Shown here piece by piece: positions 35,578-60,970 of a stretch of 64,000 nt of DNA. A program made the translations under genes and the position numbers. The notes beneath the pieces are model-generated. The model searched no databases and had not been told where the DNA came from. It was given only the letters and a program-made list of their open reading frames with translations. This DNA is from a virus (Duplodnaviria > Caudoviricetes). Each line of letters starts with the position of its first letter. The first letter of the stretch is position 1. The DNA is taken from IMG/VR virus record IMGVR_UViG_3300025141_000018. One strand, written 5' to 3'.

Positions 35578-36153
35578 TTAGACTACTGCTGTCACTGCGA
35601 TATTAGCATTACCGCCGACTGCCTCGATATTTGTAATTGTATCGACGGCCGCGGCTGCGACGCTCTCAATCTTGTGTTGATGTCCTTGTCCAGTTCGAAC
35701 TGATATATTTGCGTATGTCATTCTGTTTGATGTTCTAGCGGTTGCCATTGCGGTTGCCACTGCACGTTTAACTGCCGGGATATCGGTAAGATATGCACTT
35801 CCGTCCCAAAATTTTGGTTGGCCACTAAATTCTGCCGTAATATCTAAAGCAGTGGCTACACCGTTGGTATGTGTTATAGTTGCTCCTGTTGCAAAATAAC
35901 ATTCAATTAGATTAGCATTACAAGAACCTAATTGTTCTATGATCTGCTTCCAACGCATATTTCCACGTTCTACTGCGAGTTGTTTATTTTCTGTATTCAT
36001 TGCAGTTCCTGCTTCTTCTAACTGTTGGGAACTTTGATGAAATACAGTACCTTCGTTTGCACTTGGTGCTGACATTGCTGATAAGGCGATCTTATATCTT
36101 CGATCTACTTTTCCGCCTTGATGTTGTAATTGTTTAATGTATCCGTCGTTCAT
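35578..36153 (-). CDS. hypothetical protein
   Basis: 191-aa Ala-rich ORF with SD GGAG. Confidence 0.7.
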   Translation of the reverse strand: MNDGYIKQLQHQGGKVDRRYKIALSAMSAPSANEGTVFHQSSQQLEEAGTAMNTENKQLAVERGNMRWKQIIEQLGSCNANLIECYFATGATITHTNGVATALDITAEFSGQPKFWDGSAYLTDIPAVKRAVATAMATARTSNRMTYANISVRTGQGHQHKIESVAAAAVDTITNIEAVGGNANIAVTAVV

Positions 36154-36175
36154 TTATTATCTCCGAACTTTTGTA

Positions 36176-36514
36176 TTATTTATCTGCAACGCCCAAGTGA
36201 GTCGTTGCAAATGGTTGGGTTATTAATAGTCCGTTTATATCTATGTATTTGTCTGTGCCTTTTTCTTTTGCGAATAATGTGCCAAAACTTCTACCCTGTT
36301 TACCTTTTTTGGAAAAAGCAATTTGGCACATTAAATCTTTGCCTTCAAGCGTTTTAGAAAGAAACTCTTTACCATCATCTGATTTATCTGGTAATATACT
36401 AACGCCGTATAGTTTAACTTTCTGAGTGATGCGAACATAAAAACCTAGGTCCAAGACCATATCTAGTTGATCGCCACTTATAATCTTGTAAAAAACTACT
36501 CTGTATTCGTACAC
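36176..36514 (-). CDS. thermonuclease (SNase)-like protein, degenerate
   Basis: MYEY..GDQLD..LDLGF..K.GR..G pattern; DGDT and GIDxPE motifs altered. Confidence 0.6.
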   Translation of the reverse strand: MYEYRVVFYKIISGDQLDMVLDLGFYVRITQKVKLYGVSILPDKSDDGKEFLSKTLEGKDLMCQIAFSKKGKQGRSFGTLFAKEKGTDKYIDINGLLITQPFATTHLGVADK

Positions 36515-36542
36515 TCATTGCTCTCCTGTTAATTCAACGTAT

Positions 36543-37142
36543 TTATTGATCCCACCTATAAAAAATATGTGTGTCAATATGTACGGTTTGTTTATAATCT
36601 CGTCGTTTCCCCCACCTAGGCACATCTATATAATCTGCATGGTAATGGGTTGCGCCTTCTGTAAAATCTATAATCATCATTGATCGCTTTAAAAAATACT
36701 TTGTTAAAGCAATCGAATAAACATATGCTTTAATATTCGCTGGCCTGTCATCTTTGCCATCGCAATACCAACTAAATTGACACATATCCCTATAAGGGAA
36801 ATATGCATCCTTGCGTTTTACATACCTATGTTTGCCCTCATGCACTACTCCACAAATCGTATTTGGAAATCTTTTGTCTGCCACTCTATTCATTGTAACT
36901 AAAATTACTGCTACTTTGCCCGCCAAACTTTCGTTGCGAGCTTCGTGGTAGATATTCATTGCCATGCATTTTATTTCCGCTGGAGTAAATGCTATAAACG
37001 TATTCCGATATTTTGGTTCCGAATGTTTTTTAATTGTCATTTCGGCTTTTGCTATTTTTATCTTTTCTGTGTTAGCCGCGATTGTCGTGCATCCTATAAA
37101 GATACAGGTCAAGGTGGCTATACAAAGTTTTCTAAAACTCAT
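36543..37142 (-). CDS. cell wall hydrolase (SleB/Hydrolase_2 family)
   Basis: signal-like N-terminus; NIYHEARNE, NRV..FPNTICGVV, QFSW, GATHYHA; start at MSFRK. Confidence 0.9.
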   Translation of the reverse strand: MSFRKLCIATLTCIFIGCTTIAANTEKIKIAKAEMTIKKHSEPKYRNTFIAFTPAEIKCMAMNIYHEARNESLAGKVAVILVTMNRVADKRFPNTICGVVHEGKHRYVKRKDAYFPYRDMCQFSWYCDGKDDRPANIKAYVYSIALTKYFLKRSMMIIDFTEGATHYHADYIDVPRWGKRRDYKQTVHIDTHIFYRWDQ

Positions 37143-37199
37143 ATATACTATCCTTTTTAATTTTTTACTACATTTATACAAGATAAGTTTTAAGGAAAA

Positions 37200-37231
37200 A
37201 CCCAGCCATGCCTTCATGGCTATAACTGGGT
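37200..37231 (-). terminator. intrinsic terminator
   Basis: AGCCATG-AAGG-CATGGCT hairpin then GGGTTTTT. Confidence 0.65.
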
Positions 37232-37247
37232 TGGTTCTGTGTCCTTG

Positions 37248-37475
37248 TTACTTCTTGCTATAAATACCCCATAAAATCCAAAGGGCAATTAAGCCAACAA
37301 GTCCTTCACCACCTAATGCTTTCACGAATGCGATTACATTTCCCAGGATGTCGAAAGGAAGGAATACTACGTTCGCTCCAAAAATGATTTGAAGAACTAT
37401 ACCCATCATCAGAATCGATAATCCAACTTCTGTTAAACCTCGTATCCAAGCAGATACACTTTTGATAATATCCAT
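37248..37475 (-). CDS. 75-aa two-TM membrane protein
   Basis: SD AGGAG; hydrophobic; start at MDIIK. Confidence 0.7.
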   Translation of the reverse strand: MDIIKSVSAWIRGLTEVGLSILMMGIVLQIIFGANVVFLPFDILGNVIAFVKALGGEGLVGLIALWILWGIYSKK

Positions 37476-37497
37476 CTTATTTTTTCTCCTAAAATGA

Positions 37498-37817
37498 AAG
37501 GTTGATTCTGTTTCCAGGTTCAACCTTTAAAACCCACTAAATTATGCGGCTAACGCCATTGCATAATTAGGACTATACTCTGCATTGTTTGCAGTTATTG
37601 TTAATACAGTCTCTCCGATGCATCATTACGCTGTCGAAATCTATTTCGCCCCCATCAGCGAAATACAACATCTAAAATCCATATTAACCCTCCGGAGCCC
37701 AATAAAATTACAAAGGCCCAAAATAGGTTTTGATTGCTCATTGTTGTACCTCTCTGGTGGAGGCGGGCGGTATCGCACCGCCGTCCAAACGTCGTCAACA
37801 AAGTGTCATCGACCGTG
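37498..37817 (-). ncRNA. ssrA: circularly permuted (two-piece) tmRNA gene
   Basis: acceptor piece ends GGCGG-TGCGATA-CCGCC-CGCCTCC-A-CCA (37782-37755); coding piece starts GGGGGCG at 37653 with G3.U70; tag ANNAEYSPNYAMALAA* at 37592-37542; TAAATA at 37827-37822; 3' hairpin at 37497-37528; outer ends approximate. Confidence 0.92.
37655..37741 (-). CDS. 28-aa hydrophobic peptide in the tmRNA intervening segment
   Basis: SD GAGAGG (37754-37749), 7-nt spacer, ATG; MSNQNLFWAFVILLGSGGLIWILDVVFR*. Confidence 0.6.
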   Translation of the reverse strand: MSNQNLFWAFVILLGSGGLIWILDVVFR

Positions 37818-37835
37818 TGTATATTTACCTGAATT

Positions 37836-38264
37836 TCAGGTAGATTCCCCGGAATTACACCGAGGTGCGTGGATCTCAACTAGGTAAGATTCACGTTTTT
37901 CTAGCACTTTTTTACTAGTAAAATTAGCACACGGGGTAAATATAACCTCCACGTCATCTAATGTATCCTTGGTAAAAAATATGTGCCTAAACTCATCCCA
38001 ACTTTTAGTTTGTCTTGTTCCGTGTTTAGTAATGCCTAACAACTTTCTTGCATGTTGTCGTAATCTTTGTGGTGTTCCAGCATTATAACTGGTATTATCA
38101 CTTGCATTAATTCCGATATAAAAAATGCCAAAACTTGGCGAACTTAGCATATAAATGCCTTGAGAACGAATCTCTTTTGGTGAATCTTTCCGTGTTCTGA
38201 CACTAAAACTGTTATCTTTTGGTATAAAATCTAGAATTTTTTTTAAAGGAAATTTATACTGCAT
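37836..38264 (-). CDS. GIY-YIG homing endonuclease-like protein
   Basis: GIYMLSSPSFGIFYIG, RLRQH, E...N; apparently leaderless from a TTGACT-N18-TATAAT promoter at 38301-38272. Confidence 0.8.
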   Translation of the reverse strand: MQYKFPLKKILDFIPKDNSFSVRTRKDSPKEIRSQGIYMLSSPSFGIFYIGINASDNTSYNAGTPQRLRQHARKLLGITKHGTRQTKSWDEFRHIFFTKDTLDDVEVIFTPCANFTSKKVLEKRESYLVEIHAPRCNSGEST

Positions 38265-38297
38265 AAACTGTATTATAACATAGATGTTACAAAAAAG

Positions 38298-38594
38298 TCA
38301 AGAGATTTTATATAACGTGTAGATCCAAGTTAATTCTTCGCCGGCTTTAATATCACGATTTGTTCGAATATACCAACCAGCACCATCTACTAAAGAATCC
38401 CAAAACTTCATACAATTAGGATTATTGGAATGATTACCAAACGCACCTAACGGAGTTCTTACTATATTTCCGTTAACAAAAAAATGGATTTGTCCTAACA
38501 TTTTACCTTCTGGAATGTCTTTGGTAGCAAATAAACCAAGACCATGAATTCCCGAATCTTTAATGGTTACTAATTCCGGAAGTGGATTATACAT
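38298..38594 (-). CDS. minimal SET-domain methyltransferase
   Basis: GLGLFA, NHSNNPN, DIKAGEELT.Y. Confidence 0.88.
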   Translation of the reverse strand: MYNPLPELVTIKDSGIHGLGLFATKDIPEGKMLGQIHFFVNGNIVRTPLGAFGNHSNNPNCMKFWDSLVDGAGWYIRTNRDIKAGEELTWIYTLYKIS

Positions 38595-38604
38595 TGAGGA
38601 TCCG

Positions 38605-40809
38605 TTATGCTTCCATTAGTTTAAAAAATACGGACCACTTCACGGACTGTCCTGTTTCACCGTAAAGCATAACTTTTAATTTGTGAGAGGATGTATCAGC
38701 AATAATATCTGCATTCCAATGAGTTGCTGAATTTTGGTATGTTGTTTTTGCATTTGAACCAACAATAGATAATGTACCAGCAGTATTATCGGCTACGCCT
38801 TCTACTTTAAATGCATTTTGTAATGTACCGCCTATTTGACGTCCGATAAAGCGAACATCAAAATACCATGCTTTATCACTAGCAGGTCCTATTTGAGCTC
38901 CGCCAAACACTATTTCTTCGCCAGTATTACCTGTTGTTGTGTGTGTAGCCGTATAAACTTGTCCGTCTGGATTTTGTGTTTGAGTTAAAGTCCAAGGTGC
39001 TCCGGTTGGAATTTCTATGTAATCAATTTGATCTACTAAACTTGCACCAGTACCTTGTTTAAGCCTTTTTAGTGTTACATCACCAGAAACATTGCTTTTA
39101 ATTAAACTAATAGCACCCGATGTTCCGGTATCACTAAATGAATGAGTAACAGTTTTCCAGTCCGTAGATCGAAACTCAAGAACACTTGTATCTGTATTAT
39201 AACGTAACGTACCGTTATTAGTTATTGTACGTTGTGCATCAGTTCCACTAGGAATAACTAACCCGCCTGTTCCTGGTATCCATGTATTATCTGTAAGACC
39301 AATAGTTGGATTACCGGCAGTACCGTCGCCTTGATTAATTGTAATTTCATTTGGTGTTCCGGTTAACGTTCGATATAATGGAGTATCGCCGGATCTTGCA
39401 AGTATACCTGTACCTGATGTAGAACTTAAATTTTCAATCCATGTTGTTGGTATAATGCTAGTTACTGTCCAAGCACCATTAAGATATACATATAATGTCA
39501 AGTTATCTTCACGTAATGCTAATGCACCTTCTAGTACTGTTAATGCTTCTAAACCTGCTTGTGAAGAAACAACAATTACGTTTGCAGTAGAACTACCCGA
39601 ACCTCCTCCGCTACTTGATCCGCCACCACTGCTTGAACCTCCGCCTGGTGATGTTGATGCACCCGAATCTTCGCCACCTGCGGCAGTAGTTTCACCAATA
39701 CTGCCTGTTGCACCTGGTGCAGTTTGTGATACAACGGTTGTACCTGACGTTGGCGTTGCTTCGCCATGTAATGTAGATGTTGAGTAGCCTGTTATATTAC
39801 CACAATAATCATATATGGCTGTTTTATCTTGTATTAGTGCATCATAGTTATTACCTTTTTTAAGTAATGCAATCATTTCGGGTTCTACAAGAACTTCAAA
39901 AATATTATTAAACTCTTGCCCTGCCATGCTTGTACCTGCGGCACCAGTAACAGGATAACCTCCTAGTTTATCAAATGTTGCAGATAAGTTACCAGCAACA
40001 TTTGTTGCATCTTTTACTCCACCTTTAAATGAAGTTCCAATTCCTTGTGACCTTGGTAATCCTAAAGAAGCACTACATTCGCCTCCATGTAAACTACTTC
40101 CGCCATTACTATATGCACCATTTAGTAATCCTTCTAAACTAATTAAACTTTCTAAACTACTAATATTAGAATTAACACTTGATATTAACGAATCTAAACT
40201 TGGTGTCGCAAAACTACCATCTAGGATAGCCGTCATGTTATCGCTTATTGATTTTAAAGCACCACTATTTAAACTAGAAAAATTAAACTTACCATCGAGT
40301 CCTACACAGGCACACATATTATCAGGACCTATTGCTCCAATAGCATTTATTATATCTGCACCTTTTCCTAAGAATGAGCCAAATGCACCTTCAAGCATGT
40401 TAGGAATACTTTTTGGATTTACTGGATCGGCACAAAAGTTAATCATGCTACCAATTGCGGCAACTTCACTTATAACACCATTGAGATTTTTAAGTACACT
40501 ATCAATGCCCGTATGGTCATTAAACGAATCCATAGAATCACGTAATGATTCTAAAACATCTTTTAATTCACCTTGTAATGGATTTTTTAATAGTTCGTCT
40601 AATGCAACCGTTAGACAAATTTGGAGGTTAGGTAAGAGTAAGCCTTGTCCTGCGAGCAAGGCACATATCATATCTTTTAAATTGTAACTATATTCGGCTT
40701 GTACACCAATTAAGTCAGAATCACCGAGTAAATTTGTAGTATTGTTTACTGTCGGGGATATATAATCATTAAATGATGATAGTCCGTTACTAAAGTCGTC
40801 GAATGCCAT
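38605..40809 (-). CDS. virion structural protein (baseplate/tail-fibre-like), Gly-Ser linker
   Basis: G/S/T-rich; GGGSSS linker; GTLRYNT fibre-type motifs; adjacent to PAAR gene. Confidence 0.6.
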   Translation of the reverse strand: MAFDDFSNGLSSFNDYISPTVNNTTNLLGDSDLIGVQAEYSYNLKDMICALLAGQGLLLPNLQICLTVALDELLKNPLQGELKDVLESLRDSMDSFNDHTGIDSVLKNLNGVISEVAAIGSMINFCADPVNPKSIPNMLEGAFGSFLGKGADIINAIGAIGPDNMCACVGLDGKFNFSSLNSGALKSISDNMTAILDGSFATPSLDSLISSVNSNISSLESLISLEGLLNGAYSNGGSSLHGGECSASLGLPRSQGIGTSFKGGVKDATNVAGNLSATFDKLGGYPVTGAAGTSMAGQEFNNIFEVLVEPEMIALLKKGNNYDALIQDKTAIYDYCGNITGYSTSTLHGEATPTSGTTVVSQTAPGATGSIGETTAAGGEDSGASTSPGGGSSSGGGSSSGGGSGSSTANVIVVSSQAGLEALTVLEGALALREDNLTLYVYLNGAWTVTSIIPTTWIENLSSTSGTGILARSGDTPLYRTLTGTPNEITINQGDGTAGNPTIGLTDNTWIPGTGGLVIPSGTDAQRTITNNGTLRYNTDTSVLEFRSTDWKTVTHSFSDTGTSGAISLIKSNVSGDVTLKRLKQGTGASLVDQIDYIEIPTGAPWTLTQTQNPDGQVYTATHTTTGNTGEEIVFGGAQIGPASDKAWYFDVRFIGRQIGGTLQNAFKVEGVADNTAGTLSIVGSNAKTTYQNSATHWNADIIADTSSHKLKVMLYGETGQSVKWSVFFKLMEA

Positions 40810-45682: not shown

Positions 45683-45999
45683 TTTTTAATCGCCTTTATT
45701 GCTTGTTTTTTTGCTGTCGCTTTCATTTTATCTTTTGATTTTTTTGCTGGACTCATTCCTAGTCCTGGGTCTAATGATATTTCGTGTTCATTAGCATCCG
45801 TAACTAAAGGAATAGAGCCTAATATTTCTATTAAGCTCACATTGTCTATATCAAAATTATCTTTGTGTAAATTGTTTTGAAGTGCTTGTAATGAAATTTT
45901 TGTGATGCCATTTAATTTAGCCATGCCCAAGAGATTAATGATAGTATCTCTTAGTGCTGATTCATAATCTGTGGCTTCTACCAAAGTTGCTAATTTCAT
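45679..45999 (-). CDS. putative internal virion protein
   Basis: N-terminus MKLATLVEA. Confidence 0.6.
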   Translation of the reverse strand: MKLATLVEATDYESALRDTIINLLGMAKLNGITKISLQALQNNLHKDNFDIDNVSLIEILGSIPLVTDANEHEISLDPGLGMSPAKKSKDKMKATAKKQAIKAIKK

Positions 46000-46013
46000 T
46001 CATTCCTGTCCTA

Positions 46014-46844
46014 CTACTTAACTTGCATTTTTAAATATGCGGCGGCTTTTTTAATTGCATCTACAGGAACTTTGCCATTTTCCATTTTATGTTCATAAAT
46101 GTAACGGCCGGCTTTTTCTAAAGATTCTTTAGGAATACGTCCGGTTGGTTCATCAATAGCACCTGATGCGGCTTCTGCTCCAGCAAAATCATCTTCAGTT
46201 GGAACATCCATACCCGGATCCATTGCTGGATCTGCTGGTGCCATACCGGCATCCATTGCCGGGTCCATTGCCATTTCAGGAGCAGGACCTTCACCCGACA
46301 TTCCTAATACTGCATTGTCCATTCCATCACGAGCAGACTTAACTGCATCTAATGCTGGTTGCAAAATACCTTCTGCTTGTTGGTTGAAACCATTTGCCAT
46401 TTCAATACCGAAACTTTGTTTCATAGCATCAACAATAGGCATTAATTCCTCTACTTGCATTTCTGCAAGATCTTCTGCCATACCTTGCAACTTATCAATC
46501 ATTGCTTTAGCGGCAAGAACAACTTCGGCTTGATCCAAATCTTGTTCCATAAGTGTAGCCAATTTCTGTGGCTTTGCACTTTCTTTGACTTTCTTTTTTG
46601 TTTTACGCATTGTGGGGCTCACTTCTCTTAGCACTTCTTCGTACAAACTAGCCTGCAATACATTTATTGCATATTCGGGAGTTGATTCAGACCCCGGATT
46701 GTTTCTTTTATCTTGTATATGTTCTTTTACTTTTTTTAACTTGCCTGAGGCATTAGTAAAATCTTTTATCTTTTTGCCAGTGAACGATTGCAATGCGGAA
46801 TTGATTGCCGTTGGCTCCGAGACAGTAATATCAAATAACTCCAT
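46014..46844 (-). CDS. putative prohead core/scaffold-like protein
   Basis: helical, acidic, Pro/Met/Asp repeats; late TAAATA at 46882-46877. Confidence 0.55.
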   Translation of the reverse strand: MELFDITVSEPTAINSALQSFTGKKIKDFTNASGKLKKVKEHIQDKRNNPGSESTPEYAINVLQASLYEEVLREVSPTMRKTKKKVKESAKPQKLATLMEQDLDQAEVVLAAKAMIDKLQGMAEDLAEMQVEELMPIVDAMKQSFGIEMANGFNQQAEGILQPALDAVKSARDGMDNAVLGMSGEGPAPEMAMDPAMDAGMAPADPAMDPGMDVPTEDDFAGAEAASGAIDEPTGRIPKESLEKAGRYIYEHKMENGKVPVDAIKKAAAYLKMQVK

Positions 46845-60571: not shown

Positions 60572-60970
60572 ATGGGAAGACCAATTAGTAAAAGACATAT
60601 CGGTACACCCGATGCTGGCAACGAATTAAAATGTCGGTATCATACCGGAGCCGCAGAAGTAAACGGCTGGATTGTTGCACAAAAAGGTACCAAGCGATAT
60701 AAATGCTACGATGGTTCCACTTATGCAACATGCTCATTAGTTGATAAAGCACAAGGTACATTAGCCGCTGGCGAAATGACTGTTACTGTTAAAGACGATG
60801 GCGGAACAGTTCGCCAGGTCACAAAAATTACAGGACATAGAGTTATGCTTGATTCAGGCACATCTCAGCCTTGGACATTTACAACAGATGCCGCTGATGA
60901 CAAAGTGGAAATTGAAGAAGCAGGTACGGACGATTCCTTTACCGGCGCAGACGATTTCGAAGCAGACTGA
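60572..60970 (+). CDS. hypothetical protein
   Basis: SD AGGAG before MGRPISK; TAAATA at 60479-60484. Confidence 0.75.
   Translation: MGRPISKRHIGTPDAGNELKCRYHTGAAEVNGWIVAQKGTKRYKCYDGSTYATCSLVDKAQGTLAAGEMTVTVKDDGGTVRQVTKITGHRVMLDSGTSQPWTFTTDAADDKVEIEEAGTDDSFTGADDFEAD

Follow-up and report, generated by a model that had tools for sequence, protein, structure and literature searches.

The question raised by the minus strand between positions 37,815 and 37,497 of a 64,000-nucleotide (nt) stretch of viral DNA (IMG/VR virus record IMGVR_UViG_3300025141_000018, Duplodnaviria; Caudoviricetes; the whole stretch is called the window below) is whether a phage carries here a working transfer-messenger RNA (tmRNA) made of two pieces, and how such an RNA would compare with those already known. 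A first-pass annotation, made from the letters alone, had proposed at 37498-37827 a compact circularly permuted tmRNA under a late promoter. Comparison with related viral loci leads us to regard the locus, with high though not complete confidence, as a circularly permuted ssrA gene of the alpha type that is functional and belongs to an uncultured marine jumbo phage of low G+C content.

Identity of the permuted tmRNA gene

The annotation had suggested ARAGORN and models of permuted tmRNAs as a check. ARAGORN called a permuted tmRNA (tmRNA*) at c[37451,37849] on the minus strand with the tag ANNAEYSPNYAMALAA, and the Rfam model tmRNA_permuted (RF04321, gathering score 47 bits) aligned over its entire length (model positions 1-213 of 213) with 37811-37542 at 78.4 bits (E 2e-13). 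Both agree with the sequence on the arrangement that had been proposed: on the minus strand the CCA-ending acceptor half comes first, followed by a 101-nt spacer and by the half that starts with G1 (37653) and contains the tag (37592-37542). This order is that of a circular permutation (coordinates of the elements are collected in Table 1).

The individual elements that had been read at first pass were found again. The acceptor stem consists of 7 bp (GGGGGCG/CGCCUCC) and contains the G3.U70 pair, A73 precedes the encoded CCA, and the T-arm has a 5-bp stem and a 7-nt loop (GGCGG/UGCGAUA/CCGCC). Two P2 helices connect the pieces, ACGUU(UG) pairing with (C)AGCGU and CGAUG with CAUCG. The resume context is AUAACU-GCA, and the coding piece, first estimated at about 155 nt, measures 157 nt and ends in a hairpin at 37497. 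When the predicted mature pieces were co-folded without constraints, the energy was -78.1 kcal/mol (z = -4.9 relative to shuffles) and the fold recovered the acceptor stem formed between the pieces (P1), the T-arm, the inter-piece P2, the P5 hairpin with the stop codon and the 3' hairpin. Taking into account the Rfam E-value and the z score of the co-fold, the match to a two-piece tmRNA is far beyond chance.

Selection on the helices and the tag frame, and the subtype of the RNA

Related loci were collected in two ways. IMG/VR was scanned with a pattern describing the T-arm and acceptor core, which yielded 118 loci, and a search with the 142-amino acid (aa) protein encoded upstream of the tmRNA yielded six close relatives (L119-L124). 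In these loci ARAGORN called 72 permuted and 18 one-piece tmRNAs (72 of 90 permuted); G1 could be parsed in 59 of the 72, and the spacer and G1-to-resume lengths given below rest on those 59. The whole gene is common to the close relatives L119-L122 and L124. L062, with the tag ANNADYTRNYSYALAA, is a more distant member. The constancy of U70 in the relatives is built in, since this base was fixed by the search pattern.

The helices vary in the manner expected of paired strands. Across 26 distinct tRNA-like cores the T-stem and pair 6 of the acceptor stem (P1) are always canonical, with up to four pair types, and T-stem pairs 2 and 3 covary, also with up to four pair types. For the P2 duplexes of the whole family, cognate strands pair with a mean of -15.5 kcal/mol and non-cognate strands with -11.5 kcal/mol (Mann-Whitney p = 3e-13); for the window's own P2, 6 of 44 non-cognate partners pair as well as the cognate one. 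The stem of the 3' hairpin differs in nearly every lineage while its loop retains ...AACAGAA, and in 20 of 25 lineages the four bases just upstream of the hairpin can pair with those that open the loop, in nine combinations, among them GGGU/ACCU, GAGU/ACUU, GCGU/ACGU, CGGU/ACCG and GUGU/ACAU (cognate versus non-cognate pairing, p = 3e-5). In P5 of L062 a U-A pair is replaced by C-G through two synonymous codon changes.

Within the clade of close relatives the substitutions in the tag frame fall exclusively at third codon positions. Relative to L062 there are 17 changed bases, 11 of them at position 3, and seven synonymous and five non-synonymous codons. The resume bases AUAACU match the alpha consensus AuAAuU, the tag ends in ...MALAA, a hydrophobic ALAA-type degron, and the UAA stop lies inside P5 (AAUUAUGC/GCAUAAUU). 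Sequence comparison of these related phage contigs thus shows purifying selection on the helices and on the tag frame. Covarying helices together with third-position changes show that the RNA is structured and that its short frame is translated, a combination which is expected of a working tmRNA and is not predicted by a decoy, a relic or a chance match.

As to the subtype, a permissive Rfam scan gave alpha_tmRNA (RF01849) as the best model of the clan, aligned at full length (1-355) with 37846-37497 (E 3.6e-10). The alignment covers the alpha-specific 3' loop ACCuGGCAACAGAA, which in the window reads ACCUGGAAACAGAA, and requires deletions of the middle P2 helices, of the pseudoknot 1 (PK1) region and of about 43 nt after the stop codon. 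Judged from this alignment the RNA is alpha-type but minimised, with no room for PK1. Only 23 nt separate CAUCGG from the resume GCA, a part that is about 29 nt longer in L062, and the distance from G1 to the resume codon is 61 nt, as compared with about 84 nt in the consensus and 59-124 nt (mostly 75-90) in the viral copies. With so short a linker and G1-to-resume distance, PK1 is absent, leaving a single pseudoknot at the 3' end.

The term compact, used in the first-pass annotation, holds for the comparison with the bacterial alpha-type model and for the short G1-to-resume part, but not for the piece as a whole: exceptional compactness was rejected because 157 nt is near the median of viral alpha-type copies (166 nt, range 144-211, n = 37). 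The long tag of 16 residues makes up for the short 5' part of the coding piece. The T-loop was likewise considered as an anomaly and dismissed, UGCGA being common among viral copies and G occupying the second loop position in about half of them. As a PK1-less copy that is clearly under selection, the gene represents a natural experiment on the minimal RNA for trans-translation and a compact candidate for biochemistry.

In the mechanism that we envisage, the precursor would be transcribed from GGTAAATA, a promoter-like element upstream of the acceptor piece, by transcription reading through from the preceding gene, or by both. Host RNase P would cut 5' of G1 and host 3' trimming would expose the encoded CCA, yielding an acceptor piece of about 61 nt and a coding piece of about 157 nt, held together via P1 and P2. 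Host alanyl-tRNA synthetase (AlaRS) would charge the RNA through G3.U70 and A73, and with host SmpB and EF-Tu the tmRNA would enter ribosomes stalled on broken mRNAs. Translation would resume at GCA and add ANNAEYSPNYAMALAA, whose ALAA end would mark the product for ClpXP-type proteolysis. The probable benefit for the phage would be faster recycling of ribosomes late in infection.

Several observations weigh against this reading. The RF01849 score of 40.5 bits is below the gathering cut-off of 50. PK1 is absent between P2 and the resume codon, and the predicted fold contains no local replacement hairpin; in E. coli PK1 is needed for tagging unless a hairpin substitutes for it (PMC3968760). The co-fold predicts a 9-bp helix across the resume codon (GACUGUAUU with AGUAUAGUC), for which comparative support is mixed, with one compensatory change in L120 and a U-U mismatch in L121/L122. 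In the outer P2 helix, the 5' strand (37807-37813) can also pair inside the acceptor piece with 37796-37800 (GUCGA/UUGAC). This intramolecular pairing is retained despite the changes in L120 (GUCAA/UUGAU) and has an equivalent in L062 (GCUA/UAGC); it may represent a second fold open to the precursor or be a coincidence. The promoter-like element, described below, is a mismatch variant and not the canonical late motif. Finally, the first-pass annotation had suggested searching for smpB elsewhere in the genome, and a profile built from 30 alphaproteobacterial SmpB genes, which scores about 235 bits on true SmpB, gave no hit in any of the six reading frames of the 64-kb window.

The loss of PK1 is compatible with function. 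In E. coli a stable hairpin can stand in for PK1, and two-piece tmRNAs work with fewer pseudoknots (PMC3968760). SmpB was not found either in five large viral contigs with a permuted tmRNA, three of which are estimated to be complete, so any activity would depend on the SmpB of the host.

Table 1. Positions of the tmRNA gene, its structural elements and the neighbouring features in the window
Feature	Position	Strand	Basis or remark
Hairpin ACCUGAAAUUCAGGU	37827..37841	-	Holds the TGA stop (37838-37836) of the upstream 142-aa open reading frame (ORF); overlaps the promoter-like element
Putative late-promoter-like element GGTAAATA, part of 12-mer GGTAAATATACA	37822..37829	-	Slot homology with relatives
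Acceptor piece, ~61 nt	37755..37815	-	Rfam alignment, co-fold, covariation; 5' end inferred
Acceptor piece, P2 5' strands	CGAUG 37811-37807; ACGUUUG 37792-37786	-	
T-arm	GGCGG 37782-37778; loop UGCGAUA 37777-37771; CCGCC 37770-37766	-	
Acceptor 3' strand, A73, CCA	CGCCUCC 37765-37759; A73 37758; CCA 37757-37755	-	
Intervening segment (spacer), 101 nt, predicted to be removed on maturation	37654..37754	-	Shine-Dalgarno (SD) sequence GAGAGG 37754-37749 and 28-codon ORF
Spacer ORF, 28-aa peptide with a single transmembrane (TM) segment (MSNQNLFWAF...)	37655..37741	-	TGA stop ends 1 nt before G1
Coding piece, 157 nt	37497..37653	-	ARAGORN, Rfam, co-fold
Coding piece, acceptor 5' strand	GGGGGCG 37653-37647	-	Followed by D-loop analogue
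Coding piece, P2 3' strands	CAGCGU 37633-37628; CAUCG 37620-37616	-	Followed by the 23-nt linker without PK1
Tag reading frame ANNAEYSPNYAMALAA + UAA	37542..37592	-	Resume GCA 37592-37590, stop UAA 37544-37542 (ARAGORN)
P5 enclosing the stop	AAUUAUGC 37568-37561 with GCAUAAUU 37547-37540	-	
3' pseudoknot domain	37497..37535	-	Hairpin AAAGGUUGA 37528-37520 with UCAACCUUU 37505-37497, loop ACCUGGAAACAGAA 37519-37506
3' pseudoknot pairing	GGGU 37535-37532 with loop ACCU 37519-37516	-	
Next gene, 75-aa protein (orf75), 2-3 TM segments, holin-like candidate	37248..37475	-	Hydropathy
Endolysin (cell wall hydrolase, Pfam Hydrolase_2), hydrophobic N-terminal segment	36543..37217	-	PF07486 71.7 bits; PHROG endolysin families; hydropathy

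Promoter-like element, spacer and putative downstream lysis genes

The late-type motif of this phage is ATAAATA, which occurs 15 times on the coding strand and four times on the other; 10 of the 15 coding-strand copies precede an ORF start by no more than 60 nt, and across the window the motif is avoided (19 matches against about 50 expected from shuffles). It behaves as a genuine signal, being distributed in the way typical of a late-promoter motif that is kept out of other sites. The element in front of the tmRNA, GGTAAATA, has one mismatch to the ATAAATA core and two to the late motif of T4, TATAAATA, with G in place of a conserved A. It is located at -43 from a GGAC landmark, and relatives carry an exact TATAAATA in the same slot at -41 to -45 (L019, L022, L036, L059, L062, L077, L107, L110 and others). 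Other viral copies have TATAAT-like elements in place of TATAAATA. The element is conserved in L119-L124, including L123, a relative without the tmRNA. It forms part of the 12-mer GGTAAATATACA, of which the window has two copies against 0.02 expected, both intergenic and on the coding strand (37818-37829 and 1562-1573); the second lies 95 nt upstream of the ORF 518-1477. The 12-mer may represent a variant promoter class of the phage.

The hairpin that overlaps the element shows a compensatory change to ACCUAAAAUUUAGGU in L121/L122 and is kept in L123 with a different stem, ACCUG/CAGGU. No relevant sigma-70-type promoter or intrinsic terminator was found flanking the tmRNA gene. T4-type late promoters have an exact core (TATAAATA; NATAAATA in marine T4-like phages) about 6-7 nt before the transcript start, and such an exact core is not present here. 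We infer that the transcript starts near 37815, at the 5' end of the acceptor piece. The late promoter of the first-pass annotation is thus partly supported: the slot is homologous to that holding TATAAATA in the relatives, but the sequence is a mismatch variant. The late-promoter-like slot, common to many relatives, points to use in late infection, unlike the early timing proposed for the tmRNA of phage Melnitz (see below), and the timing bears on why phages carry ssrA at all.

The spacer between the two pieces is 11-175 nt long among the 59 viral copies, and the window's, at 101 nt, appears to be occupied by a gene. Its ORF is conserved in the clade of close relatives (L119-L124). Relative to L120 it has nine nucleotide differences, seven of them at codon position 3, with seven synonymous changes and one non-synonymous change, and the peptide reaches a hydropathy maximum (KD19) of 2.23. 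At the same place L062 has a different 28-aa TM ORF with an SD sequence. We found no description of a gene in the spacer of a permuted tmRNA in the literature searched.

Spacer-filling ORFs were also noted in L089, L114 and L020; such ORFs of other viral permuted tmRNAs, unrelated to that of the window, span 17-52 codons. The spacer of the Melnitz tmRNA opens with an SD sequence and ATG, and its GenBank record annotates no coding sequence there.

Downstream, orf75 begins 21 nt after the coding piece and is followed by the endolysin gene. The orf75 product matched no PHROG or Pfam family, the gene is kept in the relatives including L123, and no terminator-like site was found between the tmRNA and orf75. 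In L123 the order orf142, orf75, endolysin, orf112, orf191 is the same. At 3400-3520 of L123, set against 37497-37841 of the window, the upstream hairpin and the AGGTAAATAT element are present, the latter about 80 nt upstream of orf75, but there is no tmRNA. Since L123 retains both flanks, the tmRNA cassette of about 320 nt is an insertion or deletion between the promoter-like element and the putative lysis genes. Placed as it is between this conserved element and the genes of a putative holin and an endolysin, the cassette probably forms the first part of a late holin-endolysin transcript.

The linkage to endolysin genes is not confined to the clade. Among the 58 permuted-tmRNA loci with enough downstream DNA, 21 have an endolysin homolog (30-50% identical) on the same strand within 1 kb downstream (for example L003, L019, L022, L029, L036, L040, L071, L097 and L112), which corresponds to 15 of 45 distinct tags; with the limit set at 2.5 kb, 25 of the 58 loci have one. 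A universal tmRNA-to-endolysin order was rejected on account of the 21/58 proportion and of phage Melnitz-3, whose hydrolase gene lies 3.3 kb upstream of its tmRNA. The linkage is recurrent and could reflect inherited gene order or a functional link to lysis.

The precursor may be a three-in-one late transcript comprising the two tmRNA pieces, an excised 101-nt mini-mRNA and the downstream holin-like/endolysin RNA, so that expression of rescue, peptide and lysis functions would be coupled by RNase P and 3' trimming. We put this forward tentatively, as a rather unlikely elaboration. If it were true, the tmRNA-endolysin linkage seen in about one third of marine viral loci would reflect coupling and not inherited gene order. 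If the spacer gene and the endolysin neighbour reflect function, a discarded spacer would have become a gene and ribosome rescue would be tied to lysis; neither idea was found in the literature searched.

A different and in our view improbable explanation is that the tmRNA-like sequences serve mainly as processing signals: RNase P and 3' trimming would carve up a polycistronic late transcript, so that the spacer mini-mRNA is set free and the mRNA of the holin-like protein and endolysin begins at a defined 5' end, with rescue secondary or lost. The position of the cassette between the promoter-like element and orf75-endolysin and its absence from the syntenic L123, the 21 endolysin-linked loci, the stop codon of the spacer ORF abutting the predicted RNase P site and the lack of a terminator after the coding piece would all fit. 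However, processing would not require a conserved tag frame, the resume context, G3.U70 or the 3' pseudoknot; the same lysis genes are present in L123 without the cassette, and the position of the Melnitz hydrolase gene indicates that the linkage is not obligatory.

It is very improbable that the RNA acts as a decoy, binding host SmpB, AlaRS or EF-Tu and dampening or redirecting trans-translation of the host instead of rescuing ribosomes, as was proposed for the RNA of mycobacteriophage DS6A, which consists only of the tRNA-like domain (TLD) (PMC4131195). Loss of PK1 and of most pseudoknots could impair tagging, and the RNA, with no SmpB found in the window, must compete for that of the host. 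On the other hand, nothing is missing from the mRNA-like part, which changes as a translated frame does, at third positions only, and a pure decoy would need neither the conserved frame-setting bases nor the ALAA end nor the synonymously compensated P5. That the locus is a decayed, non-functional copy of a captured host ssrA or an attachment-site remnant is hardly credible: ssrA fragments left by integration at tmRNA genes are frequent in phages (PMC9004378, PMC4131195) and decay might account for the large deletions seen against the alpha model, but the comparative data weigh heavily against it, as both halves are complete, the gene is conserved in at least five distinct relatives, where its changes are compensatory and synonymous, many viral contigs have similarly compact forms and no integrase context was seen among the genes scanned around the tmRNA.

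The host phage and known tmRNA systems

The window has about 34% G+C and nearly all of its genes are on the minus strand. They include a class II ribonucleotide reductase, DnaB-like and other helicases, radical-SAM enzymes, an Mtd_N tail or fibre protein, a SET-domain protein and the Hydrolase_2 endolysin. The nearest isolates are jumbo phages: the helicase shares about 50% identity with its counterparts in PA5oct, Atu_ph07 and Phosso. A blastn search of 36000-39500 against isolate phages gave no match. The checks agree on an uncultured low-GC marine jumbo phage as the source. The strand opposite to nearly all other genes carries a freshwater-2 RNA motif (RF02980, 60500-60574, plus strand; 58.2 bits vs 49.9), which ends in a ribosome binding site and an ATG at 60572 and forms the 5' leader of an ORF running to 60970.

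The alpha-type build suggests that the gene derives from an alphaproteobacterial lineage. The first-pass annotation had taken the permuted tmRNA as a host clue, and the alpha-type RNA is in line with this, but the guide is a weak one: phage Melnitz, with an alpha-type ssrA, infects OM43, which is not an alphaproteobacterium (PMC9004378). A genome scan with the UGCGAUA T-loop and acceptor arm was also tried as an indicator of the host and abandoned, since it returned only Paenirhodobacter and Acidisphaera (both alphaproteobacteria), which is too few. A takeover of ribosome rescue by the phage, also raised at first pass, is speculation.

The first-pass annotation had further taken the known phage tmRNAs to be mainly one-piece. 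This does not agree with published data: a two-piece ssrA was described in the OM43 phage Melnitz, such genes occur in pelagimyophages and cyanophages, and among 133 unique tmRNAs of isolate phages 53 are two-piece, 50 of these belonging to phages of marine or aquatic origin (Buchholz et al. 2022, PMC9004378). Nor does it agree with the permuted majority (72/90) of our IMG/VR sample. The tmRNA database paper from which RF04321 derives contains 79 phage sequences. An older survey listed only one-piece phage tmRNAs (PMC4131195), which probably explains the earlier impression.

Melnitz (MZ577098.1, tmRNA 45984-46436) offers the closest comparison. Like the window it has an alpha-type permuted tmRNA in a marine T4-like or jumbo myophage, with an TATAAATA-type element in the same upstream slot, the AACAGAA 3' loop, an AN...ALAA tag and a spacer opening with SD and ATG, and among isolates its cell wall hydrolase comes closest to the window endolysin (46%). 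In contrast to the window, Melnitz keeps the PK1 region (G1-to-resume about 82 versus 61 nt), and its spacer of 142 nt has an ORF that runs into the coding piece, whereas the ORF in the window stops before G1. The Melnitz tmRNA is followed by a glutamine riboswitch and the gene of a late-transcription coactivator, the window's by the small membrane protein and the endolysin; Rfam scans excluded such a riboswitch from the window. The TATAAATA of Melnitz overlaps TTGACA-17-TATAAA, which its authors assign as an early promoter (PMC9004378). In L107 and Melnitz-3 a common sequence after the tmRNA 3' hairpin matches, when compared by eye, the Melnitz glutamine riboswitch; the clade of the window is without it.

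With the alphaproteobacterial RNA of the Caulobacter type (RF01849) the window shares the permutation, the acceptor stem with G3.U70, the AuAAuU-GCA resume context, the stop in P5 and the 3' pseudoknot hairpin with the loop ACCuGGCAACAGAA. Besides the deletions and the score given above, the differences are that the spacer of the model is short and non-coding, whereas that of the window appears to be protein-coding, and that the gene in the window is phage-borne and no SmpB gene was detected in its vicinity.

Phosso, a phage of Sinorhizobium that is in culture and has 469 kb, also has an alpha-type permuted tmRNA with the AACAGAA loop (PV764938.1, 349596-350198, minus strand), which is unannotated, scores 113 bits with RF04321 and was missed by ARAGORN. 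Unlike the window, Phosso has a PK1-like segment near the alpha consensus, the tag ANDNVSTKVALAA, a soil alphaproteobacterium as host and a 410-nt spacer that is highly structured (minimum free energy -133 kcal/mol) and has no convincing ORF. In PA5oct and Atu_ph07 no permuted tmRNA was found. The Phosso tmRNA and the Melnitz spacer ORF show that tmRNA genes of this kind are missed or under-annotated.

The mycobacteriophages of the Bxz1 group, Bacillus phage G and DS6A resemble the window in that their ssrA-related genes are phage-borne and no phage smpB has been reported (PMC4131195). They differ in structure: the tmRNAs of the Bxz1 group and phage G are one-piece RNAs in the standard order, and the DS6A RNA is truncated to the TLD, whereas the gene in the window is permuted and complete. 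Two-piece tmRNAs of phages are thus already known, and what the window adds, as judged from its sequence, is a structural variant: a tmRNA that lacks PK1 and retains a single 3' pseudoknot, with an apparently protein-coding spacer and a late-promoter-like element, at the head of a putative lysis cassette.

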